Virus record (IMG/VR): IMGVR_UViG_3300021387_001106
Span: 34,633-98,632 of that record
Source: a virus
Lineage: Duplodnaviria > Caudoviricetes
Strand: one strand, 5' to 3'
Length of the DNA stretch: 64,000 nucleotides
Shown here: piece after piece, positions 17,461 through 44,392 of the stretch
Numbering within the stretch: the first letter of the stretch is position 1
How the letters are laid out: each line of letters opens with the position of its first letter
Program-made: the position numbers and the translations under genes
Notes under the pieces: model-generated
Database searches by the model: none
Seen by the model: the letters and a program-made list of their open reading frames with translations, nothing else
What the model was told of the DNA's origin: nothing

Positions 17461-20400
17461 ATGGCAAGCAGGAAGGAAAAAATCGACTCGCTCAGGCGCT
17501 ACACGAACTTAATACAGAAGCAGACCGGCAGAGTCGTAAGACCCTACCGCATGGACGGCTATGTCAACATGCTCACCAAGTACGGCACGTCCCGTGATGC
17601 TTCGGAAAGATATGAGTTTAAACAGGAACCACCGGTACCGGATGAACAGCTCACTTCCTTCTACGAGGGGAACGGACTGTTCGCCAAGATCATAGACGCA
17701 CCGGCGGAAGAGGCCATCAAACACGGCTTTGAGCTGGAAGGGCTTCAGGACCAGAACATCGAGGACTTCTACACGGAAGCACTTGAAGAGCTGGACTGGG
17801 AAGAGACCATGATGACAGCAGTCAAATGGGCAAGGCTTTTTGGCGGTTCCATCGCTGTCATGATGATCAATGACGGCAGGGGTGTTGATGAGCCTCTCGA
17901 CTGGAAGAACATCACATCTATCGACGACATCAGGATATATGACCGTTCCCTAATACAACCAGACTACGGAAGCATGTTCTCCTACGACCCGGACGACCCG
18001 TTCGGGACAAGGGGGAGCCGGTTGGGTATGCCTGAATACTACGATGTCTACAGCCGGTACGGGAGCTTCCGGGTGCACGACTCCAGATGCCTTGTATTCC
18101 AGAACGGTATACTCCCTGAGAACACGAGCAATTCTGTCTATCAGTTGTGGGGTATGCCGGAGTACATCAGGCTCAACAGGGCGATACGTGACGCTGAGGT
18201 CGCACACGGAACGGCTCCAAAGATGCTCGACCGCTCCATACAGGCGGTCTACCGGATGAAAGACCTTGCAACAGAACTTGCTACAGAGGAAGGCGAGGAC
18301 AGGGTTCTCAGGCGTCTACAGACCATCGACATGGCAAGGGGGCTTTTAAACTCCATCACCATCGACAGCGAGGGCGAGGATTACGACTTCAGGCAATTTT
18401 CATTTACCGGCGTTTCCGAGGTCATCGACACGACATGCAACTTCCTGTCTGCATTGACTTCCATCCCACAGACCATCCTGTTCGGAAGGTCACCCGCCGG
18501 TATGAACTCCACGGGCATGGGAGACCTTGAGAACTGGTACAACTACCTTGAACGCATCCAGAACCGCATGATAAAGAAGAACCTGAGGTATCTTCTGAGC
18601 ATCATCTTTCAGGCGGGCGTATGTACCGGTGAGATAGATGAGGTCCCACCTATCAAGGTCAAGTTCAACCCGCTGTGGTCACTGTCCGATCAGGAAGAGG
18701 CGTCCCTTGAACAGATGAGGGCGCAGGTTGCGAACACCAATGCCAACACCGCTATGGTCTACGTCCAGATGCAGGCGCTCGACCCTTCTGAGGTCAGAAA
18801 GAAACTTGCGGATTCCGAGGAGTTTGATGTTGAGACTCTGCTCGACGAATATACCGAGGAGGAACTGGAAGAAAACGACCCTATGAAGAAACAGGCGGAA
18901 GGTGCTATGCCGGGTATGGAAGGCGGCGGTATGCCGGGAATGCCGGGGATGCCTGCAATGCCCGGTGGACCGGAAGGAGCACCGCCTGAAGGGGCACCGC
19001 CACAGGCACCGGATGCTATGGGCGGAACACCTACTGGAAAGGTTCAGCCTAATGACGGCCCTAAACCCGAAATGGCGCAGGGCGGCAAAGAAAAGGATAC
19101 GGATATTGGCGGGAACGCCCCGGCTGCTGCACCGGCAGCAACAAAACTTCCTGTTGATATGAGCGGGAAGGAAAAGGACAAAGCAGAGGAAGCTAAGGAA
19201 GAGCTCAAGAAGCCTGTAGACAAGGCTAAAGACAACACTCAGGAATCGACAGCTAAGCCAGAAGAAAAGGCAGAAGATGCAGAGGACACTCTGCGCAATG
19301 CATGGCTTGGTGTCGGGCCTGAAGAAGAAAAGCCCTCTGATAAAAAGATTATCAAAAAGCCAAAAAAGCCCGTCGACCCGCTCCCGGGGGATACCCTTCG
19401 GAACGCGTGGCTGGGAATCACTCCAAAAGAAGAAGAGGATGAGGAGGACACGCTCACAAAAGCATGGCATGGAACAGAACCGGTCGATACTGAGGATACG
19501 CTCAGGAACGCATGGCTCGGTAACATTCCCGTGAAACCGCCTCATGGCTCCAGGATCGTCCGTACACGCAAGGGGGATATTTCTATCAGGGACTTCCGTG
19601 CGGCGTCCAGAGAGGACGAAGAGAACCCTCTGACGGCAATGTACGACCATGAGATCACCGCCAGAAATGGCAAGACCTACAGGGCGTTTGAGGGCGAAGG
19701 CTACAAAGCCTATGGCGAGAGGATGCGTGAAAGCTCCCGTATGGATGCGGGTGCGCAGGGTGCAGTCGGCGTGTATGTCATCAAGGATGGCAAGATACTG
19801 ACAGGCATTCGTGGTGAAGGGGATGGACAATACCTTCTCTGCGGTCCCGGCGGACACATCGAAGAAGGTGAGACCCCCGGACAGGCTGCAATACGCGAGA
19901 CACAGGAAGAGTTTGGTATCACACCCATGGAGCTTATCCCGTTCGGGAAAGGGGAAAAGCAAAGCAACGGTCTACGGCCTGACCTGTTCCTATGTGTCAG
20001 GTTTGAGGGGAAACCCAAGTGCGATGAACACGAGATGCACAATCCGAGGTTCACAGCCATCGAAGAGATCGAGCACTCGGGCCGCCTGTTCAGGCCGTTT
20101 GAAAACGGCATCCAGAAGCTGATACAGGCAGTTACTGGAAAGAACATCCACGCAGATGATGAAAAGTGGATTACTGTCAACGGAACACACGTACTTGTTG
20201 ATGATGATGGAACCGCTAAAAACGGCGGCAAGCTCAAAGGAATGTCTTTTTCAAAAGCCGAGAGCGAGGAAAGCGCAAAGCAGACCAATGCTCCCGGCTC
20301 AAATAAAATACTCTTCCAACCGTCAAAGACTAAGATTAACAGGGAAATCTCTGATATAGCGGATAAGAGCACGCAGGATACGGTTGAAGATGACATTAAG

Positions 20401-21633
20401 AAGATTGGGAAGCTGCTTGACACACTTGAACCCGGCTCCGTAGTCACTGTCCCGGCAAATCTTGCGGGGGATGATAAGTACACCTATACAAAAGATGAAG
20501 ATGGAAGATGGGGTGGAAAAGGCACCAACGGAACATGGAAAGCTGAGGACATCGCGTGGGATTTTCTCTATGAAGACCCGAGGGAACGCGCATATATCAG
20601 CAAGTCCGCATTATCGGAAACTGAGAAAGAAAAAGACAGACAGAGCTATGAGGCACGGAATTTCCGCAATCAGGAATCCCCGTGGGCCGGTGACAACTCA
20701 TTGGCTCAAATGGCTGAGGTACAGCTTCAGAGGGAAGACCTGAAGAAAGCCGGTGAAGGCACCGTAGCGGTCGATAAGGATGGAAGACAGCTCCAATGCC
20801 ACGGAGATGGCGTATGGACAGACAGGGACGGAAACATCGTGAAGAATCCATCCGGGCTGAAAGTGGAAGGTGACTACTTCGATATAAACTGCGGATTGAA
20901 CGGCATGGATCCTATCGAAATAAGCAAGGTCAGGGACGTGTTCGATAAAATGCCACCGGATATTCAGGGTATATACGAAAAAACCTTCAGGGAACATGGC
21001 GTAAGACCGTCTGAGGAAGGATGGGACATCTCATATTTCAAACCGTCAGATGGCCGTGTATATCTCCGCGAGGGGTCGTCAGCGGGCACCTTCTTCCACG
21101 AGATGAGCCATGCGCTTGACAGAGGGGCCGTAGACATAGAGTACGTAAAAGAAAACGGAGAGAAATACAGGGTGACGTCTGCGGCGGAAAACCTTGACTG
21201 GCTTGCGCATCCGCTTAAAGAAAAGGGAAGAGAAGACTTCGAGACGATGGCAAAAATCGTCGGATTTAATACTAACGGGAAGGGATGGTTCGCCAACGAG
21301 AAAGAAGAACAGGCGTCCGTCCGACAGTTCATCGACTGGGCATATAAGTATTCCGATATACCGGGATTTGAATGTGTCAGCGATGCAGTAAGCGCAATGA
21401 CATATGACGTATGCGGGGCAAGCATATACTCTGGCGGTCATGACAGGCAGTATTGGACAGGCTCGTACCTTCAGGGCAGAAAGACATCTGCAACGAGCGA
21501 TGAATACTGGGCGAATTTCTGTGAACTTAAAGCGATGCGCTACGATACTGCTCTAAAACTCCTGAAAGTCATTACGCCGAACAGATATGCTGCGGCAGAG
21601 GCGACCTACAAAGAAGCCTTTAAGAAGAGGTAA
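17461..21633 (+). CDS. portal protein (DUF1073-like) fused to Nudix hydrolase and HExxH metallopeptidase-like domains
   Basis: N-terminal ~480 aa portal-like (KIIDAPAEEA, ARLFGGS, IPQTILFGRSPAG, FNPLW); Nudix box GGHIEEGETPGQAAIRETQEEFG; FFHEMSHALD. Confidence 0.85.
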   Translation: MASRKEKIDSLRRYTNLIQKQTGRVVRPYRMDGYVNMLTKYGTSRDASERYEFKQEPPVPDEQLTSFYEGNGLFAKIIDAPAEEAIKHGFELEGLQDQNIEDFYTEALEELDWEETMMTAVKWARLFGGSIAVMMINDGRGVDEPLDWKNITSIDDIRIYDRSLIQPDYGSMFSYDPDDPFGTRGSRLGMPEYYDVYSRYGSFRVHDSRCLVFQNGILPENTSNSVYQLWGMPEYIRLNRAIRDAEVAHGTAPKMLDRSIQAVYRMKDLATELATEEGEDRVLRRLQTIDMARGLLNSITIDSEGEDYDFRQFSFTGVSEVIDTTCNFLSALTSIPQTILFGRSPAGMNSTGMGDLENWYNYLERIQNRMIKKNLRYLLSIIFQAGVCTGEIDEVPPIKVKFNPLWSLSDQEEASLEQMRAQVANTNANTAMVYVQMQALDPSEVRKKLADSEEFDVETLLDEYTEEELEENDPMKKQAEGAMPGMEGGGMPGMPGMPAMPGGPEGAPPEGAPPQAPDAMGGTPTGKVQPNDGPKPEMAQGGKEKDTDIGGNAPAAAPAATKLPVDMSGKEKDKAEEAKEELKKPVDKAKDNTQESTAKPEEKAEDAEDTLRNAWLGVGPEEEKPSDKKIIKKPKKPVDPLPGDTLRNAWLGITPKEEEDEEDTLTKAWHGTEPVDTEDTLRNAWLGNIPVKPPHGSRIVRTRKGDISIRDFRAASREDEENPLTAMYDHEITARNGKTYRAFEGEGYKAYGERMRESSRMDAGAQGAVGVYVIKDGKILTGIRGEGDGQYLLCGPGGHIEEGETPGQAAIRETQEEFGITPMELIPFGKGEKQSNGLRPDLFLCVRFEGKPKCDEHEMHNPRFTAIEEIEHSGRLFRPFENGIQKLIQAVTGKNIHADDEKWITVNGTHVLVDDDGTAKNGGKLKGMSFSKAESEESAKQTNAPGSNKILFQPSKTKINREISDIADKSTQDTVEDDIKKIGKLLDTLEPGSVVTVPANLAGDDKYTYTKDEDGRWGGKGTNGTWKAEDIAWDFLYEDPRERAYISKSALSETEKEKDRQSYEARNFRNQESPWAGDNSLAQMAEVQLQREDLKKAGEGTVAVDKDGRQLQCHGDGVWTDRDGNIVKNPSGLKVEGDYFDINCGLNGMDPIEISKVRDVFDKMPPDIQGIYEKTFREHGVRPSEEGWDISYFKPSDGRVYLREGSSAGTFFHEMSHALDRGAVDIEYVKENGEKYRVTSAAENLDWLAHPLKEKGREDFETMAKIVGFNTNGKGWFANEKEEQASVRQFIDWAYKYSDIPGFECVSDAVSAMTYDVCGASIYSGGHDRQYWTGSYLQGRKTSATSDEYWANFCELKAMRYDTALKLLKVITPNRYAAAEATYKEAFKKR
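19282..19524 (+). repeat. four EDTLRNAWLG-type peptide repeats in the portal linker
   Basis: EDTLRNAWLG, GDTLRNAWLG, EDTLTKAWHG, EDTLRNAWLG. Confidence 0.85.
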
Positions 21634-21861: not shown

Positions 21862-22068
21862 ATGTATATACCGCATTATGATACAAAGGCAGACAGGTTG
21901 CCATCGGACGCCACTGCTGAAGAAAAGGGAAGGTTCGAGCGCAGCCACAATGGCTATGGATGGATGCTTTTTTATAAGGAGCTTTATCCAGACCTGTCTG
22001 TCCCATATATGCGGTGGGATGGTAAGGTAATTGACAGCACATGGCTGTCCTTTTTTGATGCCGTCTAA
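21862..22068 (+). CDS. small hypothetical protein
   Basis: GGAG/AAGG RBS, 68 aa. Confidence 0.55.
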   Translation: MYIPHYDTKADRLPSDATAEEKGRFERSHNGYGWMLFYKELYPDLSVPYMRWDGKVIDSTWLSFFDAV

Positions 22069-22087
22069 CCTGTTACAGGAGATGACT

Positions 22088-23251
22088 ATGGAACGGATAC
22101 AGGCGATAAAACTGAAATCCATACAGATACGCTATCGACTCAGACAGAGGATGGACGGCGGCCCGGGTTCTGGCAACTGGGGGCACGAGGGGAGACCCGG
22201 CAAGATCGGCGGATCGGCGGAAGGCGGCGGCACACATAACCGACAAAAGAACAGGTTCGGCGGCTATACCTCGTTCAGCAAATGGAGAAAAGAATCTGCG
22301 AGGAGCCACGCGCTTACGAGTCAGGACATAAAGGATGTCTACGACTTCGAAGACATTATCATTGTCGACAAAGACGGAAACCGATACCAGAGGAGCGGGC
22401 ACAACTTTGAGTGCAAAACGACCGGGGATAGAAGGGATTTCGCTATTGGGGATGAATGCCGGCTCATCATCCCGAACAAGCTCAGTCCGAATTACAAGGT
22501 CACCCGCGATGATAAGAAGGCAATGGCCTTGAATCAGGAACGGTTTGAAAGAGCGTTCTACCCGGAGGAAAGAGGCGATGCCGATACCAGATACAGGTCT
22601 GAAGCCGGGGAAATATGGAATGGATGCAGCGAAAAAGAAAAAGATTCCATGTATAGATATACCTCGTCGGAGTATAGGAGGATAAACAAAAATGTTCGCG
22701 GCGGTAATACCGATGACGAGGAGTGCAACGAGACCATAGCAGCTATCACGGATGTGATAGACAGGTCCGAATTGAGACAGGATAGTGTCCTCAGGAGAGG
22801 AATATCGCTGGGAGCCGCTGAGAAACTGTTCGGGCTGCCAGAGGGGTATCTGGAGGCCGGCAATCATGCCGATGAAGGGAACATCTCCATGGTCGGCAGG
22901 GTCGGAACTGATGATGCGTTCATGAGCTGCGGTTCATCCCGAGATTCCGGGAATGACCGTCAGGTTGTTCTGGAGATTCTGGCTCCTGAGGGAACCAAGG
23001 CCATGTATTGTGAACCGTTTTCCGCGCACGGCTTGGGTGACAGAAAACTGTGGGACGGGAAAAGCGGACAAGAATACTTTTCCTCTGAATGCGAGAGCCT
23101 TTTGCAAAGAGGAACCACTCTACAGGTCATCAGCCACGAGATGAAGGACTCGTTTGGGTTTACATACCATACGATGAGAGCGGTTATTTTAAGGCAGGAT
23201 ACAGGAAGTTCTGAATACAGTCAAAAGATAAAAAAGGCAAAGTGGAATTGA
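22088..23251 (+). CDS. VIP2/C3-like ADP-ribosyltransferase with RMD-GGPGSGNWGH leader
   Basis: YTSSEYRRIN..., LRRG, FMSCG, SECESLLQRG (R-S-ExE). Confidence 0.75.
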   Translation: MERIQAIKLKSIQIRYRLRQRMDGGPGSGNWGHEGRPGKIGGSAEGGGTHNRQKNRFGGYTSFSKWRKESARSHALTSQDIKDVYDFEDIIIVDKDGNRYQRSGHNFECKTTGDRRDFAIGDECRLIIPNKLSPNYKVTRDDKKAMALNQERFERAFYPEERGDADTRYRSEAGEIWNGCSEKEKDSMYRYTSSEYRRINKNVRGGNTDDEECNETIAAITDVIDRSELRQDSVLRRGISLGAAEKLFGLPEGYLEAGNHADEGNISMVGRVGTDDAFMSCGSSRDSGNDRQVVLEILAPEGTKAMYCEPFSAHGLGDRKLWDGKSGQEYFSSECESLLQRGTTLQVISHEMKDSFGFTYHTMRAVILRQDTGSSEYSQKIKKAKWN

Positions 23252-23296: not shown

Positions 23297-24406
23297 ATGC
23301 CATCAATTCAGAATGACTTGAAAAGGATCCGCCTTTCCCTTAAAAAACGAAGAGAAGACGGATATACGGGAGAAAAAACATGCACAGGCGCATATAAAAC
23401 GCATGGGAAAATTGACCGGGGGGCCGCAAGTGCTATAATAAAGTTGAAGGGGGGGAAGGTACGGGCAGATAGCTGCCAAAAAGGACAAGCGGACGGCGGA
23501 CCGGGAAGCGGAAACTGGGGACATGAAGGCAGGGACACAGGTGAACCCGGCGGTTCAAAGCCCGGTGGCGGAAAGAAAAACAGGACATACCGCAATAAAA
23601 TAGGTTTCATTGCAACAATGAAGAAAGGAGACGCTAAACTTCTCGAACGGACAGACAGAAAGGTGGCTAAGATGAGGAAAAAGCTCCCCGGGCTCATGAA
23701 AGAAAGCCATGAAACATGGGAAAGCTGTGTAGCCGCCAGCAAAAGCGGGTCTTCAATCCCTTCCGGGTCTGAGGCAAGAAAAGACAGAGTTTTAAAAGGG
23801 CTTTCGCCGGGGGCACAGAAAAGGTATGACCGAGTTTTCGAAGCAGAACAAAGGATAACAAAAGACCTTATCGGCATTGCGTCCGACAGTGGAACTGAGA
23901 TGTACGGCTTGGATTTTTCGCTGAAGAAGGGTTCCTCTGTGGTAGAGAAGGTCGCAAGGAAAAGAGCGGCGGATATTGCGCGTGAACTTAAACCTAAAAC
24001 AGACGAAGAATATGTATCTCAACTCGGGGACCTTGTCAGGTACACACAACTTTGTGACCATAACAAGATGGCAGACGTCGCAAAGGGCACGCTGTCTTCA
24101 CTGAAGGCAAAAGGATATGACGTAGTCGAGGTAGACAACAAGTGGCAGGATGAGAAGTCCACATACAAAGGATTTCACATAATCGCAAAGGATAAGAACG
24201 GACAGCGGTTTGAACTCCAGATACATTCGAAAGAGAGTATGGATGTCAAGGAGCTTAACCATGTGCAATATGAAGTTGCAAGGCAGCCAAAAGCCAGCGC
24301 TTATGTCAGGGATACGCTCGACCCACAAATGGCTGAAAGAACTGCAAAAATGAAGAAGCCAAAAGGGATGAACGATCCCGCCTTGAAGTCGTGGAAAAAT
24401 GAATGA
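23297..24406 (+). CDS. RelA/SpoT-family nucleotidyltransferase (small alarmone synthetase-like)
   Basis: KKGSSVVEK, DLVRYT, YKGFH, FELQIH correspond to SYN1-4-like motifs. Confidence 0.75.
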   Translation: MPSIQNDLKRIRLSLKKRREDGYTGEKTCTGAYKTHGKIDRGAASAIIKLKGGKVRADSCQKGQADGGPGSGNWGHEGRDTGEPGGSKPGGGKKNRTYRNKIGFIATMKKGDAKLLERTDRKVAKMRKKLPGLMKESHETWESCVAASKSGSSIPSGSEARKDRVLKGLSPGAQKRYDRVFEAEQRITKDLIGIASDSGTEMYGLDFSLKKGSSVVEKVARKRAADIARELKPKTDEEYVSQLGDLVRYTQLCDHNKMADVAKGTLSSLKAKGYDVVEVDNKWQDEKSTYKGFHIIAKDKNGQRFELQIHSKESMDVKELNHVQYEVARQPKASAYVRDTLDPQMAERTAKMKKPKGMNDPALKSWKNE

Positions 24407-24958: not shown

Positions 24959-25801
24959 ATGACAGAATACAAGAGCTTTTTCAAAACTGTCGGGGGCAAC
25001 GAGGGCAACAAGTGCCACTACCCGACAAGACTTGATAGCTACGGGTGTGGCTGCGCACATGACTGCAAATACTGCTATGCAAGGTCGCTGCTGGAGTTTC
25101 GCGGGCTGTGGCGTCCCGAGGACCCGTCTGTTGCTGATATAGGCAAGATACGGCGTAAATTGGATAAAGTGGAACCGGGGACGATATTGAGGCTCGGCGG
25201 AATGACAGACTGTTTTCAGCCGATGGAACGCAAACTGGCCATCACATATCAGGTGGTCAGGGAACTGAACAAGCGCCGTATCGGGTACCTGATCGTGACG
25301 AAATCCGCCATGGTTGCGGATGACCGGTACATCGGTGTCTATGACCCGGAACTTGCCCATATACAGGTGACCATTACGGCAACAGATGATGCCGTGGCGC
25401 TTGGATACGAGAAAGCGAGTCCAATTTCAGAGCGTATCAAAGCAGTCGAGAAGCTACAGATGAATGGTCTGGACGTGGCCGTAAGGCTTTCTCCATTCAT
25501 ACCTGAGTATGTAGATTTTGATGTTCTGAACAGCATCAAATGTGACAAGATACTTGTGGAGTTCCTCAGGTCAAATGCCTTTATCCGAAAGACATTCCCA
25601 ATAGACTACTCGGAATACACGGTGAAGCAGAACGGATACTGGCACATGTCGCTCGACAGGAAGAAATACTGGCTATCAAAGATAACGGGTTTCAACGAGC
25701 TGACGGTATGTGATGACGAGACAGAAGCATACGAATATTGGAAACAAAACGTCAACCCGAATCCTGATGACTGCTGCAATCTTCGGAAGGTTGCAATCTG
25801 A
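24959..25801 (+). CDS. radical SAM protein (spore photoproduct lyase-like)
   Basis: GCAHDCKYCYA (CxxxCxxC), GGMTDCFQP, IVTKS, RLSPFIP. Confidence 0.8.
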   Translation: MTEYKSFFKTVGGNEGNKCHYPTRLDSYGCGCAHDCKYCYARSLLEFRGLWRPEDPSVADIGKIRRKLDKVEPGTILRLGGMTDCFQPMERKLAITYQVVRELNKRRIGYLIVTKSAMVADDRYIGVYDPELAHIQVTITATDDAVALGYEKASPISERIKAVEKLQMNGLDVAVRLSPFIPEYVDFDVLNSIKCDKILVEFLRSNAFIRKTFPIDYSEYTVKQNGYWHMSLDRKKYWLSKITGFNELTVCDDETEAYEYWKQNVNPNPDDCCNLRKVAI

Positions 25802-25880: not shown

Positions 25881-28800
25881 ATGACCACGCTGGATTTCAA
25901 TAAGGCGGTAATGGCATTTGTGTTCGCCTACCGTGCTGGAAATATCGAGAACGATTCTACACACATGGACAACGCTTACGATGAATGGCTCGAAGAAAAC
26001 CTCGATAAGTTTGAAGACGACGATTCAGAGGTGGCATTTGCCCAATGGAAGAACAGCGAGGGGGAAAAGCCAAGGGACTGTGATGACATCGACATGGTCG
26101 AGGCAATGTGGTTGGAATACAAAGGGCGGAGGAAAGACGGAAAAGACGATGAGGAAGGACGCTGGATTACCACGGAAAACAAGCATAAGGTGCATATCAA
26201 TGAAGAAGGCGTCGCTGACAAAGGGAATCCACATGTCCTTGCCGTGATGAACGAGGGGGAGAAAAGTGCGAGGAATAACAGCAGCCCTAAGGGGACGGCA
26301 AAGCACAAGATCGTTAATGGAAAAGATATTTCTGAATCTTACAGCGGTGAAGGAACCATAACGTCTGTCATACACGAACAGGGATTTGATGGGGTGCCTA
26401 AAGTCGTTTCGGATGATGAGTTTGATGAAGCTGTCAAAGCAAGCGGTTTTGTCGCTCAGAGGACATATTCATCAGAGTCGCCTGAGGTTCTGGATGCATA
26501 CCGGGAAGCACTTTACAGCGGGGAATGGTATGTGGAGTGTACTTATGGAAAGTCAGCATTTGGAAGGGGTATGTATACCGTATCCGATGCCTCGGGGACT
26601 ATAACAGAGGCTGCGGAAGAAGAGGTTGCGAAATATCGAAAGTATGGCCAACATAGCTATACGGAAACGATGACGCTTGCCCCGGGGGCCAAGATAGCAG
26701 ATTACAGAAAAATTGCAGAAGATTGGGAAGATGGCTTTAATCACTACAATGACCTTGAGGAAATAAAAGCCTTAGAGAATAGGGCTCAGGAAGATATTGA
26801 TAAAAAAATAAAAGGACTGGGCAAAAGAGGAAAAGAGTATCTTGATTGGGCAAAGCCTTTAGAAGAAGCCTTTTACAAAGAACAATTTAAGGTAAATTGG
26901 AAAGACGAAAAACAGATAGAAGAATACAACGGGCGGTATAAAAAATTTTACGAGGAAAAGAAAAGAAGGCTCAGCATGTTTGACCCGGATACTGCTCTTG
27001 CATTGGATAAGCCTCATAAGGCAGCTGAGAAAAGATTCAGGGAATTAGAAAAGGAGAAGTTCAAAAAAGGCATTGAGTTGCGTAAAAGATTCAAAGACAT
27101 CAACGCTTATGCAGCGTCGTTGGGATACGATGCGGTCAACGTACCCCACGGAAAGGGGCTCTTTTACACAATCATCCTGAACCGAACGAAGCTCATCATT
27201 AAAGATAAGCGAAATCGGAAAGATGATGAAGATGACAAGCACATCACCTTCCGCCCGGGAAAAGACGGACAGATGTTGGCTGTAAAAGACGGAAAAGTGA
27301 TTGGCTCGGTCTGGACAAACGATGTGCAGTCAGACGATATGCAACATGATTCCGATGAAAGCTCTGGTCCGGTGGAAAGCCTTGGGGACAAGCTCAGAAA
27401 ATTTAGGATGATCCGCAGAAAATATAGGCACGATGCATCCTTTGGAGACGAACCTGTTGATGAACTTATTGATGATTTCGGCCTTGGTGATGACGAAGAG
27501 TGGATAACAGTAAATGGCACGCATATACTCCTGAATCAAGAGGGCAAAGCGGTGAACGGCGGCGACCTTGCCGGGAAGGACTTCTCAAATGCGAAAAGCG
27601 AGCCGACCGTCGCACGCCGTCCTACACCGGAAGTCGGGAAGAGAAAGTCGACGGACTTCCTTCCACTGCATTCCTACAGGGATACAGAAACGTTTAAGGA
27701 CGCAGTGGCCTCTTATAAAGAAGCAAGTGAAAAAGCCGATGAGCTGTGGGCAAAAAGAAAAGAACTTGAAGAAGCTGTCAAAAGCGAGAGCCGACCGAAA
27801 CCGAAAGATGAATGGGATGAGGAAGATGAGTACCAGTCACTGATAGGGAAAAGGCCGAGGATATACACCGAAAAAGGAAAGAAACTCCAAGACGAGTTAT
27901 CAAAAGTCGAGAAGGAGTGGTTTAAACAGAAAAAAGCCAATGACGAAGCATCTGAAAAGCTCGATGCCATGAAAGAGCAGGAACATCAGCGTCAGGCTGC
28001 CGCCTATAAGCCGAACAAGTTCAAGGAAGCTAAAAAGGATGACTATGAAGGGTTCACGCTCGACAAGACCAGCAATTCATTTGGTGATGAGTACCTTCAG
28101 AACGGCAAGGGCAGGATCGTAGAGATGTCACCGAGGGAGTACCTTGAACGGTGTGCTTACGAGATATTCCACAACGGCACAATGGAAAGCACCATGGGGG
28201 CTGTTGACGAAAAGACAACGGACAAATACGCGGAGCAAATGAAGAACGGCGAGAAGTTCGACCTTCCATACCTGAACTACAAGGACATGGGACAGGAGGG
28301 AAGGCACAGGGCTGTAGCTGCATACAAAGCCGGTATCGAAACAATGCCGGTGCTCATTATCGGGGACCCGAAACACAGGAAAGATTCCAAACGACATGAG
28401 CGTATGGATGAAGAACCAGAAGAATGGATTACCGTGAACGGTAACCACATACCGCTTGATGGCGATAAGAAGCCTATCGGCGGACAGATGAAAGCGCTTG
28501 GGAAAGCAGCTCCAAAAGCAAAAGCCCGTCCTGCACACGGGGTGGTATCCAAAAAGACGTCACTCACTCCTGCTCAAAGGAAGCATTATTCGGACGAGCT
28601 CGAACGGATAACAGAAGCTTTCCAGAAGGAGAGGGATTTCCAGAAGAGTGTTAATCCAAAAGTGAAGGACTACGACCCGACCCCGTTTATTGAAAGCGAA
28701 AAGCGAGCAAAAGAACTCCGTGCGGAGGGGGAACGCCTCTGTGGGGAAATGCCGGCGGGGACAATTATCACTAAGGGCACCGAACTGTATGAGAAGACAG

Positions 28801-34435: not shown

Positions 34436-34448
34436 CGTGGAGGAAATG

Positions 34449-35444: not shown

Positions 35445-36860
35445 ATGAAACCTATTCAGCGGATAAAGCTCGATACCATCCGCATCAGACACTCTTATAA
35501 GAGAATGGACGCGGATGATGATACCCAGTGGATTACCATTAACGGTGCGCATGTCCCAATAGATACAGGGGGGAATCTCAGGGGAAGCGTCGGAAAGAAA
35601 ATAGCCAAGACTTCGACTGGTAAAAAGTCGTCTGGTGGTGGAAGCAGCTGGAAAAGGTCTGCCGACAAAGTACCTACGACAGCAAAGTGGGGAGGCGCTT
35701 CTGGCTCAAAAAAAACTGGTAGCAACAGTTCCGTAGGTCACGAAATGACTGGACATACTGGTAATCGTTATCAAGAAAGCGGAACGGAAAAAGGGAATCC
35801 ATATTCCACAGTGGCGGCTTCGAGGCCAAAGAAGAAAACCGTATATGGCAAGATGAAGGACAGCGAGTTTGTTCCAAGTGGGAGCTGGACTGAGAGAAAG
35901 CTCATAAAGGAGAATACAGCCAAGTCATCTTCAAACTCTGGCACCGGCAAATTCAAGATGCCAAAAAGCGGAAAAACAGGGATAACTCACCCAAATGGAT
36001 CAGAGGCGTCTCAGGAAGACATTGTTGATGCTGTAGAGTATATGAAAGGAACAGGGGACAAGGCTTCACTCAGAAAAGACATTGAGGCCGGTAAGTTCTC
36101 GAAGAAAGAGATCGAGAGATGCCTGGACTATCACGCCACAAAAGGGATTCCTTCCAGTAAGAAAAACTCATATTTTAAAAAACTTCAAAACGAAAGGAAC
36201 GGAGCTGAATCGTCGGAGAAACGACAGAGCACCACTAAAAATCCACACCTAAAAGATGGATGGGGAGACACTTACAGACATACCCCGGGGGCTGGAAGCA
36301 CATTTCAGGGATTATTCAAAGATGGAAAGCGTGTCGGGTATATTGAACACTGGGAAGATGATGGTGACCATGGGTATTCCGTCTATAAAGACGACAATAC
36401 ATTCTTAGGCGGTTTTCGTTCGGCAGATAAAGCAAAAAAAGCGCTGGAAAAAGAAGCAGGAAAAAGCAGGACAAAAAAAGCAGTTGAGGCACCTGCATAT
36501 TCCGGGCCCCGGTCCGGTGACAAAAAGCTGGATTCTCAGTTTGATAAGACCCGGCAAGCACTTGCTGAATGGGAGAAAGCTAAACAGGATGAGCAAAAAG
36601 CGTACAAAAGAGTATGCAGAAAACTTGGGATAAAAGAGACGAGACAAGAAAGCATACACAGTTCTTCCAATCAGGCAAAAGTAAGGGCCGCAAAAGACCC
36701 GAACCTGATCGCCGCTGAAAAAGCGAGCGAGAACGCGATGTCAAAACATGCGAGGGCCACAAGCGAATTGAAAAAGCAGTATGGGGAGTATAGGAAGAAC
36801 GGCGGAAAAGCCATAAGCGAATACTACAGCGCAGCAAGAGAATGGGATGATTATGATTAA
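35445..36860 (+). CDS. putative head cargo protein (RMD + WITING motif), basic
   Basis: AAGGAG RBS; KRMDADDDTQWITINGAHV. Confidence 0.7.
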   Translation: MKPIQRIKLDTIRIRHSYKRMDADDDTQWITINGAHVPIDTGGNLRGSVGKKIAKTSTGKKSSGGGSSWKRSADKVPTTAKWGGASGSKKTGSNSSVGHEMTGHTGNRYQESGTEKGNPYSTVAASRPKKKTVYGKMKDSEFVPSGSWTERKLIKENTAKSSSNSGTGKFKMPKSGKTGITHPNGSEASQEDIVDAVEYMKGTGDKASLRKDIEAGKFSKKEIERCLDYHATKGIPSSKKNSYFKKLQNERNGAESSEKRQSTTKNPHLKDGWGDTYRHTPGAGSTFQGLFKDGKRVGYIEHWEDDGDHGYSVYKDDNTFLGGFRSADKAKKALEKEAGKSRTKKAVEAPAYSGPRSGDKKLDSQFDKTRQALAEWEKAKQDEQKAYKRVCRKLGIKETRQESIHSSSNQAKVRAAKDPNLIAAEKASENAMSKHARATSELKKQYGEYRKNGGKAISEYYSAAREWDDYD

Positions 36861-37094: not shown

Positions 37095-37129
37095 GGCTGC
37101 CAAGATTGCCCTGTAAGGCGCTTAAAGAC

Positions 37130-38044
37130 ATGGATGGTACAAATTATCAAGATAAGGCCCAGAACCTCGTACAGAGGAAATTCGGACGCAAGAAAAGGAT
37201 GAAAAGCAGGTACGCACCACGGTACCCGTCAAGTGCTGAGCGTGAGTACAGGCGCATCAACAGCGCGTATGTACAGATACTCGATAAGACGCTGGAGAAG
37301 CAGCTCCCTTCCATCCTGAAAGCCTATGAGAAACAAATGCGCAAGGACAGCCACGAGGACGGTGTCTTTGATTTCCTTCCGTTCCTTCGAAAGAAGATAC
37401 ATGCCATGGCGGACACGATAGCAAAAGCCATGGAAAGATTTCGGTTGCAGGAACAGATCGGGAAGATAGGGCGCATGGTTCAGGAGAGGTCTATCACCGA
37501 ATGGGGGTCAGCCCTAAAGAGCACCCTTGACATTGACATACCTGCGGATAAATACAGGGAAGGTGCATATGAGCAGGAGATGCAGAGATGGATTTCCGAC
37601 AATTACAACTATGTCAGGAACATACCTGTAGACACTCTGCTTGAGATTGAGAACCTGATAGCAGATGCTTTCCGGGACGGTGTTGACATAGACGTTCTCG
37701 AAGAGGAAATTCGGAACCGGCTCGATAAAGCGTTCAACAGGGGGCAGTTTGCAGCGATAAGTCAGGTGTCCTCACTGAATGCTTACATGATGAAGTCCTT
37801 CCAGACCGGGGCCGGCGTAAAGAACTACGTATGGATTTCATGCCGGGACGACAGGGTCAGGGAAAGCCACCGCTCATTTGACGGAAAGACGTTCTCATGG
37901 GATGACCCGCCAGAGGATTGGTACCGGACAAAGGAACGAGGGGTCGTCAGGACCGGGAAGAGATACAATCCCGGGGAAGCACCCGGGTGCAGGTGCTGTG
38001 CTGTTCCTGTGTTCGACAAGAAAACATTTGAGATTCCAAAGTAA
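37130..38044 (+). CDS. MuF / SPP1 gp7-like minor head protein (no C-terminal toxin)
   Basis: YVWISCRDDRVRESH...FSWDDPP...PG...CRC. Confidence 0.85.
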   Translation: MDGTNYQDKAQNLVQRKFGRKKRMKSRYAPRYPSSAEREYRRINSAYVQILDKTLEKQLPSILKAYEKQMRKDSHEDGVFDFLPFLRKKIHAMADTIAKAMERFRLQEQIGKIGRMVQERSITEWGSALKSTLDIDIPADKYREGAYEQEMQRWISDNYNYVRNIPVDTLLEIENLIADAFRDGVDIDVLEEEIRNRLDKAFNRGQFAAISQVSSLNAYMMKSFQTGAGVKNYVWISCRDDRVRESHRSFDGKTFSWDDPPEDWYRTKERGVVRTGKRYNPGEAPGCRCCAVPVFDKKTFEIPK

Positions 38045-38112: not shown

Positions 38113-38370
38113 ATGTCTGACAAGAAGAACATGGGCAGCAACCCAAGGCTCGCACCGGACGCCGTAGAACCTCTCAGGTTTCCAGAGCTTGACAAGGTTG
38201 TCTGTAAGGACTGTATGTACAGGGCAAAAGACATCGGGAAAGGCAAGGATGCAGTAAAAGGAGCAGTCCTTGGAACCTGCGACGCCTATGCCATCAAACC
38301 ACCATCCATCCTGCTCGATGGAGCGGAGTGCATGTATTACCTCAGCGAGGAAGACGAAGAGGAAGAATAA
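38113..38370 (+). CDS. small Cys-rich protein
   Basis: CKDC...CDAY..KP...C.YY; own promoter and terminator (38378-38407). Confidence 0.65.
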   Translation: MSDKKNMGSNPRLAPDAVEPLRFPELDKVVCKDCMYRAKDIGKGKDAVKGAVLGTCDAYAIKPPSILLDGAECMYYLSEEDEEEE

Positions 38371-38435
38371 CCGACTGAAAAGGACTGGCATTACGCTGGT
38401 CCTTTTTGTGTGGAACATTTTCAAAGGTGACCGTT

Positions 38436-40022
38436 ATGGACAGACTTCAGATGAATATGCTTGCCGAGATAGTAAGGATACGGCATCAGCTCCGCAGAAG
38501 ACGTATGCAAAACTCCGAAATGGACCGTGTAGGGCTTTCTGGTACAATAAAAGTATCCGGGGAACCAAACCGGGAAGACGATGAAGGAACCTGGGTCACC
38601 ATTAACGGAACGCATGTTGAGATTGACAAGGAGACTGGGGGTATCACGAAGGGCCCAAAAAACCTGAAGGACTACTCCGAAAAAAAGAAGGGAATAAAAG
38701 CAGCGGGACGGAAGGCAATCGATACAGCAAAGAGCAAGTGCGATGACCTGAAGAAAAAAATGGACAAGGCGGAGGCGGCGGAAAAGGAATGGGAGGATAA
38801 GGAGTATTTAGCACGCCTTGATGTGGCTTTTGCTAAAGGACACATCAACATCGTGGAGGATAATCTCAAAAAAGCAAAGGCTGAGCTCAAGAAGTACGAT
38901 TCTGGTCGCTCAGACGAAGAACTGGACAAGGCAATCAAAGACACTCAGAAAGAGATGGATGAGCTGCTGGAATGGATCGACGCACATCCACGTGAGCATG
39001 GGGAACCGCATGAACAGTATTTGGAGCGTCGCCACAAGAGAGAACTTTACTCGGATGCAATGAACAGGTATCTGAACGCTTCCTCTGAAAAACATGCAAG
39101 GGAAGACCTGAAAAAAGCAGAAGCGGATTATCATGAGACTGTTGCAAAACTTGAGGCGGCTGAAAAGGAACATGAGAGGATAAAAGCGGAGGAGCCAAAA
39201 GCATATCAGAAAGCCCGAGAGGAATATAACAAAGCCGCCAAAGAAAGAAATGAGGCTGTATTAAAGACGTTCAAAACTGCTGATGACTGCGAGACATCAC
39301 AGGATGCCACGGACTATATCCGTGCGAGGGAGTATTTTGACCAGAGTGAAGGCTACCATAAATCTGACAAGAATACCGACCTGACAAAAATGTCTCCAGA
39401 GATGGCCATTGCCCATGCGAGGACGCTTGACCGTTTCTTTGGTGATTATCCCGGCCTGAAGGGGAGATTTGAAGGAATTGACTGCCGTGATATGAGTAAA
39501 GAGCCCGGATACGAGTCAACCTATGGATATGCAAGCGGAACGATGGTATCCTTAAATACGAAGTATTTTGGACCGGGCGGCAAGGGAAAAGAATCGTACG
39601 AGAAAGACTGCCATGACTTCAAGCTCTCGCATAACGGCTTCCATCCAAAGGGGACATCTGTCGAGGCGGTCCTTGACCACGAGTTTACACACGCAATCGA
39701 GGCACTGCTGAACAAATGGCTCGGGAATGGGCAGAAGGCTTCAGACATCATCATGCAACGGGCTCAGGAAAAGATGACAGGATATTACGCCAGAAGCAAC
39801 GAGGACTATGTAAGGGCACAGGTCAGCGGATATGCAAGAGAGAACAGGGGCGTAAAACCCGATGGAAAAGGCGGGGCAACTGTTGATAAAGCCTATGGCG
39901 CCAACACTGAGTTCATAGCTGAGGCGATGGCAGACGCACGGAACAACAAGGCACCGGCCCTGTATTCTTATGCGGTAAGGGAAGTAATGGAAGAAATGAT
40001 GAAGGAGGCTGGACTTATATGA
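38436..40022 (+). CDS. putative head cargo: W motif, coiled coil, HExxH metallopeptidase-like domain
   Basis: NREDDEGTWVTINGTHV; DHEFTHAIE...EFIAEA. Confidence 0.75.
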   Translation: MDRLQMNMLAEIVRIRHQLRRRRMQNSEMDRVGLSGTIKVSGEPNREDDEGTWVTINGTHVEIDKETGGITKGPKNLKDYSEKKKGIKAAGRKAIDTAKSKCDDLKKKMDKAEAAEKEWEDKEYLARLDVAFAKGHINIVEDNLKKAKAELKKYDSGRSDEELDKAIKDTQKEMDELLEWIDAHPREHGEPHEQYLERRHKRELYSDAMNRYLNASSEKHAREDLKKAEADYHETVAKLEAAEKEHERIKAEEPKAYQKAREEYNKAAKERNEAVLKTFKTADDCETSQDATDYIRAREYFDQSEGYHKSDKNTDLTKMSPEMAIAHARTLDRFFGDYPGLKGRFEGIDCRDMSKEPGYESTYGYASGTMVSLNTKYFGPGGKGKESYEKDCHDFKLSHNGFHPKGTSVEAVLDHEFTHAIEALLNKWLGNGQKASDIIMQRAQEKMTGYYARSNEDYVRAQVSGYARENRGVKPDGKGGATVDKAYGANTEFIAEAMADARNNKAPALYSYAVREVMEEMMKEAGLI

Positions 40023-40827: not shown

Positions 40828-41178
40828 ATGTCACAGCAACCGGAACTCATGGCGAAAGGAGCAAATGGAATGACGAATGAGGACGTTATTATCGACCTGA
40901 GCAGGCAGCTTGAAGCTGTAGCGGAACGGATAAAGGAGATTACCGAGGGCATTTCCGCAATGCGCGAGGGAAATCCGTCTATCTGCGAAAACTACGAGAA
41001 CTTCCTGCTTGATGAGGTGGCGCACGTACAGATACTTGCGCTTGACCTGACACAGGCCGTAACGGAAGGGGAGGACGGCAACCTCGACGAAGCCTTCGGG
41101 CCGGGTGAACTTACGGATGTGCCTGAGAATGAAGACGAGGACGAGGAACCGGACGAACCAACGGAGGAAGATGCTTAA
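40828..41178 (+). CDS. acidic helical protein
   Basis: GGGAGG RBS; abuts the protease gene. Confidence 0.65.
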   Translation: MSQQPELMAKGANGMTNEDVIIDLSRQLEAVAERIKEITEGISAMREGNPSICENYENFLLDEVAHVQILALDLTQAVTEGEDGNLDEAFGPGELTDVPENEDEDEEPDEPTEEDA

Positions 41179-42771
41179 ATGAAACTGAAAAGGGTGATAC
41201 GCCTTGACAGTATGCCACTAAACCGGGCGTCATTTACACCGGAAGGATTCCTGATGGATACGCCTATACTGACGTGTACGGGTATCTTTGAATACACAAA
41301 TCCTGACGGCTCTGTGAGAAAAGAACTTCGTTTGCCAGAGGAGGTCTTTTCGAAAGAAAGCCTTGCGTCCTATGAGGGTTCGCCAATCATCATAAGCCAT
41401 GACGCAGGGTTGATCACAAAGGACAATGTCGCTGAGAATGAGATAGGAACCATTCTGACGAAAGGCTTCCGTGACGGAGACAATGTCAGGGCAAAAATCG
41501 TAATCCATGACACGGACGAGATGAAGGAAAGTGGACTGAAGGAACTTTCCCTTGGCTACAACCTTGACCTCGATGAAACTCCCGGGGAATGGAACGGAGA
41601 ACCGTATGATGCGGTTCAGCGGAATATCCGCATAAACCATCTGGCACTTGTCAGAGAGGCAAGGGCCGGGGAACAGGCACGTTTGAACATCGATGGCAAA
41701 GGTGCTGAAAAGAAAGGAGAAGACATAATGGGTTACAGAAAACTGACCAAGACCAGAACAAGGGCAAAGACAAGAAGAGTGAGACGCTCTGATGGCATTC
41801 TCTCTCCTGATGAGCTGAAAGAGGCGATCAAGGAGTACAGGAAACGTCATCCCGAAGCCGGTCAGGGCGGCAACAAGGATGAGGATGACGAAGAGAAGAA
41901 ATATGCGATCCCCGCTGTTGAGCAGGACGACGACGATGTCTCCCCTGAGGAAGCAGCAGCCGAGAAGATCAGGCAGGAAATGCAGGCGAAGCTCGATGCC
42001 GAGGAGGATGACCTCGCTCAGGCAAACGAGACCATTCAGCATCAGGACGAGGACATCCAGACCCTTCTGGACATCATCGACACCCTGCTTGCGGAGCGCG
42101 ATTTCAACGGCTCCAAGACTGATTCCGACGATGAGACTCTCCCCACTGAGGAAGAGAACACCGATGAAGATGAGGAGGTGATCCCAGAGGACGAAAACAC
42201 CGACGAGGACGAGGAGTTCGCTGACGAGGAGAACACCGACGAGGATGAGGAGTTCACCGACGAGGAGAACACCGACGAGGACGAAGAGTTCCTTGACGAG
42301 GAGAACTCCGACTGCGACGACGAGGAGCTGAAGGAAGACGACGATGAGGAAGAGGAGCTCATCGAGGACGATGCAGACGAGGACATCCCGGATGCAACCA
42401 AGGCCGAGGCTGCCGTGATGAACGCTGACAGCATCGACAGGATCGTCCGTGACCGCGTCAAGCTGGGCATCGTTGCCGACAAGCTGCATCTCCGTGGACT
42501 GGAGAACATGTCCATGAGAGCCGCCAAGAAGGCAGTCATCCGCGTGGTCCGTCCTTCCATCAATCTTGACGGCAAGGGCAACACCTACATCAATGCCATG
42601 TTCGATCTGGCCTGCGATGATGTGAAGGTCCGTTCCCGCAAGACCACCCGGTACCAGAGGAAGCAGATGTTCAACAAGGATTCCCGCAGAGCGGTATCCA
42701 GAAGGGGCAACTCTGCTGAGGATGCACGCAAGAAGATGATCGCGCGTCTTCAGAAGAAGAGAAACAAATAA
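41179..42771 (+). CDS. DUF2213 prohead protease fused to an acidic scaffold
   Basis: [37 protein letters not shown]. Confidence 0.85.
42148..42330 (+). repeat. tandem ~33-36 bp repeats encoding E(E/D)ENTDEDEE in the scaffold
   Basis: About five units visible in both DNA and protein. Confidence 0.85.
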
Positions 42772-42791: not shown

Positions 42792-43286
42792 ATGAGCGCA
42801 CAGCTGAATTACAGATATTCCACACCCCTTGGCGTGGCCGGCGGTATCGTCGATCTTGCGCCTTATGCGATCGATACCCTCAAGAATGAGGAAGAGAACG
42901 GCGTCATGACTTTCGGCATCGCTGTCGTTTCCGGTACGAACGTCGGCGTCCAGATCAAGAAGCCCGTTGCAGCTTCCACCGCTGCGAATTTCGAGGGCAT
43001 CGCGACCAACAATCTGACCACAGAGTACGACCTTGACGGAAAGATCCGTATCCTGAAGGGTTCCCCGGTCGGCGTCATGCGCTATGGCCGCGTGTACTGC
43101 CGTGTGGCAGACAACGTGACCCCGGCTTATGGCGATGCGGTCTACTTTATCAAATCCGGTGAACAGGCTGGATACGTCACCAACAGTTCTACAGGCACCG
43201 TTGCCATCAAGGGACGCTTCCTTGGAACCGTTGACGCAACCAACCGTGTCGCTGAGGTTGAACTGTTCAACCAGGCTCAGGTATAA
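42792..43286 (+). CDS. capsid decoration/cement protein
   Basis: Between protease and MCP; beta-rich, 164 aa. Confidence 0.7.
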   Translation: MSAQLNYRYSTPLGVAGGIVDLAPYAIDTLKNEEENGVMTFGIAVVSGTNVGVQIKKPVAASTAANFEGIATNNLTTEYDLDGKIRILKGSPVGVMRYGRVYCRVADNVTPAYGDAVYFIKSGEQAGYVTNSSTGTVAIKGRFLGTVDATNRVAEVELFNQAQV

Positions 43287-43312: not shown

Positions 43313-44392
43313 ATGGCTAAGAAAAGACACACATCCTATGACAGGGCTGACCTGAAAGCCCTTCGTAATTCTGGTATCCCTGCGACCATCATGGCCTCTG
43401 CCGGTACCAGATTTGACAGCGTGGACGACGCGTCTGTCTTCTTCGCTCGTGAACTCGACCACGTCAAGGCACAGTCCTATGACGTTGAGTATCCTGAGCT
43501 GACTGCTCTGTCCCTGTTCCCCCAGACCTCTGAGGCGGATGAAGGCGCAGAGACCATTACCTACTACACCTACGATAACGTCGGTCTCGCGAAGGTTCTG
43601 GACAACTACTCCACCGACCTTCCCAGAGCAGACGTGATCGGTAAGCCCAGCTTTGCAAGCATCAAATCCATCGGTGACAGCTACGGCTACTCCGCACAGG
43701 AGATGCGTGCATCCCGGCTGGCCGGCAAGTCCCTTGACGCAAGAAAAGGTGAATCCGCTCGTTATCAGGTCGACAACCTGATCAACCGTATCGCATGGGC
43801 CGGTGACAAGGGCTCCGGTCTGATGGGCGTCCTGTCTGAGGGCCAGAACATCCCTCTCTATCTTGTCGCAGCCGGCGGCACCACTGGCAAGACCAAGTGG
43901 ACCGAGAAGAGCGCAGACGAGATTCTGGACGATGTCAACGGCATGGCGAAGCAGGTCGCAAAGGTGACCAAGAACGTCGAGCGCCCCGACACCCTGTGTG
44001 TCCCTGCTGACGTTTACATGGACATCTCCACCAGACGTATCCCGGATACAAGCACCACCGTCCTGAAGTTCGTTCTGGATCACGCTCCCTACATCAAGGA
44101 AGTCATCTCCACCGCCGAGCTGGATGCTGATTCCCCTGAGACCAACCCTTATGCAGTGACCGGCGTCACCTATGAGGTTGACGGCCAGAACTTCACTACC
44201 ACTGAGGGCGTGGGCGTTGCGTTCCTGTTCAAGAACGACGTTCGGAAGCTGGCACTGGAGAACCCTATGCCCTTCCGCCAGTATCCGATCCAGGTCCGCA
44301 ACCTTGACACCGTTGTCCCCTGCGAGGCAAGGACTGCCGGTGTTATCGTTTACTACCCTCTGTCCTGCCTGATCGCGGTCGGCGTCTGCTGA
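43313..44392 (+). CDS. major capsid protein (DUF2184-like)
   Basis: FFARELDHV, DLPRAD, YGYSAQE, ends VYYP; strong codon bias; followed by a terminator. Confidence 0.9.
   Translation: MAKKRHTSYDRADLKALRNSGIPATIMASAGTRFDSVDDASVFFARELDHVKAQSYDVEYPELTALSLFPQTSEADEGAETITYYTYDNVGLAKVLDNYSTDLPRADVIGKPSFASIKSIGDSYGYSAQEMRASRLAGKSLDARKGESARYQVDNLINRIAWAGDKGSGLMGVLSEGQNIPLYLVAAGGTTGKTKWTEKSADEILDDVNGMAKQVAKVTKNVERPDTLCVPADVYMDISTRRIPDTSTTVLKFVLDHAPYIKEVISTAELDADSPETNPYAVTGVTYEVDGQNFTTTEGVGVAFLFKNDVRKLALENPMPFRQYPIQVRNLDTVVPCEARTAGVIVYYPLSCLIAVGVC

Follow-up and report, generated by a model that had tools for sequence, protein, structure and literature searches.

Introduction

To our knowledge, prohead proteases with a defined cleavage site are few and comprise enzymes with specificity for Glu (T4, phiKZ-like phages), Lys (HK97) or Ala (herpesviruses). 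In the prohead core of T4, the gp21 protease cleaves after Glu at (Leu/Ile)-x-Glu sites, and a capsid targeting sequence is found on the internal proteins IPI-III and on Alt. Here we describe the head genes of an uncultured gut myophage, which lie in a stretch of 64,000 nucleotides (bases 34633-98632 of the 98.6-kb IMG/VR virus record IMGVR_UViG_3300021387_001106; in the following "the window") and whose products share a motif of the form [R/H/N/K]-x-D near their N-termini and at a part of their domain boundaries. In a first-pass annotation, this motif had been proposed to be an Asp-specific prohead protease site.

The locus resembles the T1-like coliphages (Drexlerviridae; T1 gp50/gp47, TLS gp36) in comprising a homologous DUF2213 protease-scaffold fusion and a homologous PF09950 capsid protein, and in the gene order portal, MuF, protease, decoration protein and capsid protein. 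Further common features are a short capsid propeptide, which is removed directly after Asp in the coliphages and is predicted to be removed at the aligned position here, as well as counterparts of the candidate sites at the N-termini of the protease (R-F-D↓S, common to T1, TLS and the Faecalibacterium phage FP_Brigit) and of the portal ([K/R]-x-D↓G-Y). Arrows mark a known or predicted cut, with the preceding residues counted as P3, P2 and P1 and the following one as P1'. In contrast to the locus described here, T1 and TLS show Lys at P3, their scaffold parts each comprise about ten K-x-D↓[A/G/S] sites, and these siphophages of about 49 kb possess neither packaged enzyme cargo nor Arg-rich leaders nor a portal extension. 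The papers on T1 and TLS report the N-terminus of the capsid protein and state no Asp rule (PMC11945409, PMC11447400). A literature search on DUF2213 and PB1-like capsid processing gave nothing on specificity, a search combining prohead protease and aspartate gave only a paper on the Glu-specific case of SPN3US, and no explicit statement of an Asp rule for the DUF2213 family was found in the searchable papers.

With regard to the cargo, phage P1 and the so-called polyvalent proteins have to be considered. In phage P1, the capsid protein gp23 and the anti-restriction cargo protein DarA both lose an N-terminal piece to the Pro protease, and the capsid propeptide of about 124 residues acts as a scaffold (PMC12810830). 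The likeness to P1, which is drawn from the published description, consists in the loss of an N-terminal piece from both the capsid protein and anti-defence cargo by the action of a prohead protease, while the length and the scaffold role of the P1 propeptide represent a difference. Polyvalent proteins, like several proteins of the window, unite multiple enzymes (ADP-ribosyltransferase, Nudix, RelA/SpoT-like, MuF), have their genes among the head genes and are assumed to be injected and cleaved into units (PMC5512222). While a zincin-like peptidase was proposed for their processing, the sites described here match the capsid site of the prohead protease.

The nearest cultured relative of the uncultured phage is FP_Brigit (in the following Brigit), likewise a myophage, with a capsid identity of 59%. 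All genes are located on the plus strand, and the features of the head module are summarized in Table 1. It is probable that the common motif is recognized by a head-maturation protease encoded by the phage itself, i.e. by the N-terminal DUF2213 domain of the protein encoded at 41179-42771. This enzyme would be a serine protease with the fold of T4 gp21 and the herpesvirus assemblins, which would act within the assembled procapsid and cut C-terminal to Asp in flexible segments. Its site would comprise Arg, His, Asn or Lys at P3, any residue (often Leu, Met or Phe) at P2 and Asp at P1, with P1' being small or acidic.

Table 1. Genes and candidate cleavage sites of the head module, given in positions of the window. 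The annotation of the head module is based on Pfam and PHROG matches.
Feature	Position	Strand	Basis
Large terminase with LAGLIDADG insert	13620-16052	+	
Small tagged open reading frame	16468-17022	+	
Small tagged open reading frame, leader end R25-S26-D27, then G-G-P-G-S-G-N-W-G-H module	16540-16548	+	
Portal, 1390 residues; Phage_portal_3 at residues 63-425, then 900-residue C-terminal extension with Nudix and HExxH (residue 1213) regions	17461-21633	+	Pfam, PHROGs
Portal, R30-M31-D32, then G-Y-V-N; candidate N-terminal cut	17548-17556	+	Conservation
Portal, R760-M761-D762, then Ala; start of Nudix unit	19738-19746	+	Homology segments in relatives start at 765-768
Portal, H897-A898-D899, then Asp; end of Nudix unit, directly before W-I-T-V-N-G-T-H-V module	20149-20157	+	
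ADP-ribosyltransferase	22031-23251	+	
ADP-ribosyltransferase, leader end R40-M41-D42, then G-G-P-G-S-G-N module	22148-22156	+	
RelA/SpoT-like protein	23297-24406	+	
RelA/SpoT-like protein, leader end R19-E20-D21, then Gly	23351-23359	+	
Radical SAM protein	24959-25801	+	
Giant protein, 1767 residues	25827-31130	+	
1767-residue protein, candidate site R102-K103-D104, then Gly	26130-26138	+	Homology-boundary cluster at about residue 97
1767-residue protein, paired candidate sites R851-K852-D853↓S and R859-M860-D861↓E, before W-I-T-V-N-G module	28377-28409	+	
Giant protein, 1038 residues	31078-34194	+	
1038-residue protein, candidate site R45-K46-D47, then Asp, before W-V-T-I-S-G-T-H-V module	31210-31218	+	
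314-residue protein, no family match	34437-35381	+	
314-residue protein, Arg-rich leader end R23-M24-D25, then Ala	34503-34511	+	
471-residue protein, no family match	35445-36860	+	
471-residue protein, Arg-rich leader end R20-M21-D22, then Ala	35502-35510	+	
MuF	37106-38044	+	
MuF, H83-E84-D85, then Gly; conserved candidate site	37352-37360	+	Relatives
538-residue protein, no family match; HExxH at residue 425	38406-40022	+	
538-residue protein, candidate site R56-E57-D58, then Asp	38571-38579	+	
DUF2213 protease-scaffold protein, 530 residues; protease domain at about residues 15-160, then acidic, repeat-rich scaffold part	41179-42771	+	Pfam, PHROG, model
Protease, R8-L9-D10, then Ser; candidate N-terminal self-cleavage site	41200-41208	+	R8 and D10 invariant in 31 relatives
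Protease, N170-I171-D172, then Gly; candidate cut separating protease and scaffold	41686-41694	+	N170 and D172 invariant in 31 relatives
Cement protein	42792-43286	+	
Major capsid protein (PF09950), 359 residues	43313-44392	+	
Capsid protein, R33-F34-D35, then Ser36; predicted maturation cut, residues 1-35 as putative propeptide	43409-43417	+	Homologue alignment and conservation

Predicted cleavage of the capsid protein

The capsid protein, which matched PF09950 with an E-value of 1.1e-53 and comprises the HK97 fold, has relatives of known structure in T1, FCWL1, Pam3, XM1, Pa193 and E217. Its profile matched the solved capsids of T1 and FCWL1 with an E-value of 1e-44 and that of XM1 with an E-value of 0.8, while in the fold comparison the capsids of Pa193, Pam3, XM1, FCWL1 and T1 were matched with Z values of 19-21. 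The structural alignment did not fix the N-termini, since the N-arm aligned poorly (root-mean-square deviation of 10 for XM1). Instead, the N-termini were taken from the numbers of modelled residues and from the corresponding papers.

For TLS, Edman degradation of the capsid protein gave the N-terminus A-S-D-M-G-I-W (PMC11447400). This peptide starts at residue 28 of the TLS record, directly after A-K-N-D27. For T1, the capsid protein gp47 was modelled from cryo-electron microscopy data beginning with residue 27 (range 27-319; PMC11945409). Since the sequence of T1 reads V-K-Q-D26 followed by A27, the modelled start directly follows Asp26. In the HMMER alignment, the columns of T1 Asp26↓Ala27 and of TLS Asp27 correspond to Asp35↓Ser36 of the window. 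Since a cut after Asp was thus seen experimentally at the homologous position, a mature start at Ser36 follows by homology. Based on these experiments with homologues, it is well supported that residues 1-35 would be removed and that Ser36 would be the first residue of the mature protein, and the earlier proposal of an Asp-specific prohead protease cut of the capsid protein is supported by both the Edman end of TLS and the model start of T1. The TLS paper itself estimated that 45 capsid residues are removed (PMC11447400), while the current 324-residue annotation (TLS 5986-6960) results in 27.

The conservation of the site shows the same picture. Among 120 capsid relatives of 74-97% identity, G-T-[R/H]-F-D-S is nearly invariant, while the preceding 30 residues are more variable. 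In Brigit, P3 is occupied by Asn. In the predicted model, the R-F-D↓S site is part of a loop that connects helices. When 1.8 billion representatives were searched with the profile, about 3100 capsid relatives (clusters at 50% identity, metagenomes) were obtained, from which 123 diverse full-length ones were aligned. In this alignment, P3 comprised Arg (31), Asn (31), His (15) or Lys (10) in 87 of 117 cases, P2 Leu (75), Met (15) or Phe (12) in 102 of 119, P1 Asp in 111 of 119 and P1' Ala (80) or Ser (23) in 103 of 121, with a median propeptide of 13 residues. The P3 set of R, H, N and K given in the first-pass annotation matches this family-wide logo, which could not have been seen at that stage. 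An invariant Asp in a propeptide that is discarded indicates a role in recognition.

The structures of further phages are consistent with this picture. In the cryo-electron microscopy models of E217, the first visible residues are 66 for the capsid protein and 97 for the portal. The near-identical Pseudomonas phage PB1 (portal gene 1112-3421, capsid gene 7218-8366) comprises A-M-D↓S in both proteins, with Asp64 in the capsid protein and Asp76 in the portal, shortly upstream of the positions where the E217 models begin. These sites suggest an Asp rule independent of P3 in Pbunavirus, the DUF2213 protein of which has so far been called only "scaffolding protein". The capsid protein of XM1 is visible from residue 31.

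The protease-scaffold protein

The predicted enzyme matched PF09979 (DUF2213) with an E-value of 1.9e-33 at residues 18-169 and phrog_530 ("head maturation protease") with an E-value of 9.9e-81, and shares 35% identity with T1 gp50 in the protease domain (BLASTP E-value of 5e-25). An AlphaFold model of residues 1-200 showed a mean predicted local distance difference test score (pLDDT) of 72, with values of 80-94 for the core residues 15-160. In a fold search of 48,161 solved chains, T4 gp21 (5jbl) was the best match, with a Z of 9.6 and a root-mean-square deviation of 2.8 over 132 aligned residues, and the sole one with a Z of at least 8. The next matches were the protease of varicella-zoster virus (Z 7.5), followed by those of human cytomegalovirus and Kaposi's sarcoma-associated herpesvirus. 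An acidic P1 is in line with this fold, as T4 gp21 cleaves after Glu. The residues H74, S124 and H154, for which we infer a catalytic role, do not vary among 31 relatives and have aligned counterparts in T1 gp50. In a Drexlerviridae protease, S121 was named as the catalytic residue (preprint 10.1101/2023.05.21.541620).

Judging from conservation and position, the protease would trim itself after Asp10 and would be released from the scaffold part after Asp172, while the scaffold part would be fragmented. The sequence L-N-I-D172↓G aligns with L-N-L-D↓A of T1 gp50. Both Asp10 and Asp172 are located outside the model core, in flanks of low confidence, and the segment at Asp172, the first one after the folded core, shows a pLDDT below 50. 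Among the protease sites listed in the first-pass annotation, I-R-L-D10↓S proved to be invariant in the relatives at R8 and D10, whereas G-N-K-D and F-N-K-D found no support there and the invariant L-N-I-D172↓G at the domain end had been missed. Residues 329-378 (approximately; 42160-42320) of the scaffold part comprise four to five tandem acidic units of about 12 residues (E-N-T-D-E-D-E-E-F...), each of which contains N-x-D↓E.

Portal and MuF

The R-x-D↓G-Y at the N-terminus of the portal is kept in at least 20 relatives, including two variants with insertions just upstream, as well as in Brigit. Its counterparts are K-H-D7↓G-Y-N in T1 and K-E-D12↓G-Y-N in TLS. In the case of MuF, M-R-K-D81 had been listed as the site, but the column of the relatives places the conserved site four residues downstream at S-H-E-D85↓G. 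This column reads [S/A/I/V]-[R/H]-x-D↓[D/G/A/S/N] in the relatives and Q-R-H-D↓D in Brigit. Based on conservation and position, it is assumed that the portal would be trimmed after Asp32 and MuF after Asp85. Altogether, the protease, the scaffold part, the portal and MuF are probably all trimmed.

Frequency of the motif in head and tail proteins

The tetrapeptides listed in the first-pass annotation are all present at their positions. Nucleotide 17548 lies in the portal codon for Arg30 of Y-R-M-D32, nucleotide 19738 in that for the Arg of S-R-M-D762, and nucleotide 43417 is the last base of the capsid codon Asp35. The predicted mature starts SVDDA (capsid) and GYVNML (portal) are likewise read in the translation.

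For the calculation of expected counts, each protein was shuffled with its composition kept. Accordingly, the loose form [RHNK]-x-D was observed 142 times in the head region compared to 151 +/- 10.5 in the shuffles (z of -0.9), and K-x-D, H-x-D and N-x-D counted singly in the head genes showed no excess over shuffles. In contrast to this observation, R-x-D-[GSA], a form picked post hoc after the data had been seen, occurred 22 times in the head genes compared to 8.7 expected (z of 4.8) and once in the tail genes compared to 3.3. A specific avoidance of the motif in tail proteins was considered and rejected, since all [R/K]-x-D forms are found there at 0.5-0.8 of expectation.

Within residues 9-90, [RH]-x-D-[GSAD], one of the narrower forms that were partly chosen post hoc as well, was found in 11 of the 17 head-module proteins of at least 90 residues, compared to 2.0 +/- 1.3 expected and to 3 of 36 other proteins of the window, and none of 2000 shuffles reached a count of 11. 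A form derived from the outside capsid logo, [RNHK]-[LMF]-D-[ASDEG], amounted to 15 in the head genes compared to 6.8 expected (P of 0.002) and to 8 compared to 6.2 in the rest of the window. In 80 related loci, R-x-D-[GSA] reached 2.4 times its expected frequency in the genes upstream of the capsid gene and 0.34 times in those downstream of it (neck and tail genes), whereby homologous proteins are among those counted, so that the counts lack independence.

These numbers also bear on the explanation that, beyond the capsid site, the pattern results from composition and selection, i.e. that proteins rich in Arg, Lys and Asp offer a loose motif near any boundary. This would be in line with the loose form occurring at expectation, with the list of the first-pass annotation being a selection of 28 of the 142 sites of the head region, and with several listed sites, namely G-N-K-D, F-N-K-D and also A-H-G-D in the cargo, having no support from relatives. 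Since the shuffles that keep the composition yield only 2.0 of the 11 N-terminal sites, the motif is kept across relatives with an exchange of R and H, and the motif derived from outside capsids is enriched only in the head genes, this explanation is highly improbable. Nonetheless, single sites cannot be called from the tripeptide by itself, which is too frequent for this purpose unless position or conservation is considered as well. The first-pass statement of an Asp-specific site readable directly from sequence was thus overstated with respect to "readable directly", whereas the cut after Asp in the capsid protein is backed by the experiments with homologues.

Leaders and modules of the cargo proteins

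At the N-termini of the cargo proteins, the Asp is preceded by an Arg-rich leader of 15-25 residues with the form hydrophobic-x-R-I-R-x-x-L-x-x-R-R-x-D. A leader of this kind ending with R-x-D is present on about ten proteins of the window and on many proteins of the relatives. In the 80 related loci, it heads many unrelated proteins, sometimes twice in tandem, with R-[L/F/M]-D at its end and Gly, Ala or Ser as the next residue. Based on conservation and position, these leaders, which are predicted to be helical, would be removed from about ten cargo proteins, and this cleavage is considered probable. By analogy to the targeting peptide of the T4 internal proteins, the Arg-rich leader would probably serve as the signal for loading into the capsid. 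In the RelA/SpoT-like protein, three successive candidate sites (Asp21, Asp58 and Asp66) were found, the last of which precedes the Gly-rich module described below. The radical SAM protein (24959-25801), which may be packaged as well, comprises T-R-L-D26 followed by S directly before its Cys-rich cluster motif and lacks the Arg-rich leader of the cargo proteins. The small open reading frames at 17038-17337, 38113-38370 and 40828-41178 of the head module show strongly acidic C-terminal tails with runs of Asp and Glu, which might pair with the Arg-rich cargo leaders.

Downstream, the cargo Asp directly precedes one of two repeated modules, either G-G-P-G-S-G-N-W-G-H (3 copies) or a short acidic run and then W-I-T-V-N-G-T-H-V (7 copies). 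In the relatives, longer proteins, several of them of portal length, contain the ADP-ribosyltransferase unit with an identical starting point. All 45 distinct contexts of the Gly-rich module in the relatives show an Asp directly upstream, with P3 being variable except where a leader is located before the module. A possible explanation would be that only the capsid protein is cut after Asp, at Asp35, while the R-x-D of the cargo terminates a common leader or linker module which stays uncut and serves as a signal for capsid loading or ejection. The invariance of Asp within the Gly-rich module at variable P3 and the constant vicinity of the cargo motif to one of the two modules are consistent with such a role. 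However, the pattern of P3, P1 and P1' is identical at the experimentally supported capsid site, the leaders of unrelated proteins end in exactly R-[L/F/M]-D↓[G/A/S], and leaders removed by prohead proteases have precedents in the T4 internal proteins and in DarA of P1 (PMC12810830). An uncut leader is therefore rather unlikely.

Internal sites of the giant proteins

The first-pass annotation had assigned the motif to most domain boundaries of the cargo. A BLAST comparison of the three giant proteins with their relatives placed 9 of 18 [RH]-x-D-[GSADE] sites no more than 8 residues away from a homology-boundary cluster, compared to 3.6 for random positions (P of 0.004), so that roughly half of the boundaries, and not most of them, carry the motif. 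In the 1767-residue protein, homology segments of the relatives start at residues 854-855. The portal segment 763-899 between its two sites, when scanned alone, corresponds to exactly one Nudix domain (E-value of 2e-14). Scans of the segments between predicted sites with Pfam and PHROG gave matches only for this Nudix unit and for two C-terminal head-protein regions. More tentatively than for the leaders, it can be proposed that enzyme units within the giant proteins would be separated from each other, as for example the portal Nudix unit between Asp762 and Asp899. Cleavage at internal polyprotein sites is plausible as a whole and not callable site by site.

Two of the head-module proteins comprise HExxH motifs, the portal at residue 1213 (21097-21111) and the 538-residue protein at residue 425 (39678-39692). 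Hence, the cargo polyproteins could also be processed by a packaged zinc metallopeptidase, either in the capsid or after injection, with the prohead protease handling only the capsid protein and the scaffold. For polyvalent proteins, zincin-like peptidases were indeed proposed as processing enzymes (Iyer et al. 2017, PMC5512222). Neither of the two HExxH regions matches a peptidase family of Pfam or PHROG, and the cargo motif equals the capsid motif, which is cut in T1 and TLS, phages without an HExxH head protein. Since the head genes of T1 comprise no HExxH protein, the cut after Asp does not originate from an HExxH enzyme there. Processing of the cargo by a metallopeptidase is thus quite improbable. 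The three alternatives all concern sites other than that of the capsid protein, for which they are less likely than recognition by the DUF2213 protease.

Several observations weigh against recognition by the DUF2213 protease at all of these sites. The experimental support stems from homologues in more distant phages. As given above, the loose motif does not exceed expectation, R-x-D-[GSA] and in part the narrower forms were chosen after the data had been seen, and the counts across related loci include homologous proteins. Motif-like tetrapeptides are also present within the folded domain of the mature capsid protein, so that the context must matter. In the portal, the protease and MuF, the residues following the Asp are conserved as well, so that the motif may instead have a structural role after maturation. 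With regard to the cargo, the Asp that is invariant before the Gly-rich module while P3 varies may belong to this module for another reason, the other half of the internal sites shows no homology boundary, and the two HExxH regions represent another possible processing enzyme.

Comparison with the T4 capsid targeting system

With the T4 system, the locus has in common the protease fold, the acidic P1 and, as proposed here, N-terminal leaders on packaged and injected proteins that are removed by the enzyme trimming the capsid. Contrary to T4, P1 is Asp and not Glu, and R-x-E is under-represented in the head genes (32 compared to 46.5 expected). Further differences are a basic or polar P3 instead of Leu or Ile, the fusion of the protease to the scaffold, and a leader that is Arg-rich and about twice as long. 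Moreover, polyproteins exceeding 1000 residues and a portal fusion are found among the cargo. The locus thus resembles the T4-type capsid targeting system in its working and is not a member of it by specificity.

Outside the processing system, the large terminase (810 residues) contains a LAGLIDADG / Hom_end homing-endonuclease insert at residues 229-325, located before the Terminase_6N match (397-630), which could be an intein or an inserted domain.

Implications for phage head modules

The capsid protein of this type is found in more than 1300 phage records. If true, cleavage after Asp by the DUF2213 family would supply a rule applicable to a head module that is very common. In this phage, the Asp rule together with the common leader would predict the head-loaded proteins and the delivered pieces. 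The rule would thereby open a direct route to injected anti-defence enzymes in uncultured gut phages, and the Arg-rich leader might be of use as a tag to direct foreign proteins into capsids.

It is conceivable, although we hold this with some doubt, that leader and Asp cut form a portable code for loading and release in a large group of gut Firmicutes phages, and that the Asp rule extends across the whole DUF2213 family. If the code holds, a dozen or more unrelated enzymes would be packed into the head and freed as separate units before injection. This cargo would include ADP-ribosyltransferases, a Nudix hydrolase, a RelA/SpoT-like enzyme, HExxH proteins and a portal-borne set present in twelve copies. 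If the Asp rule holds family-wide, the packaged proteome would be readable from sequence in thousands of phage genomes.

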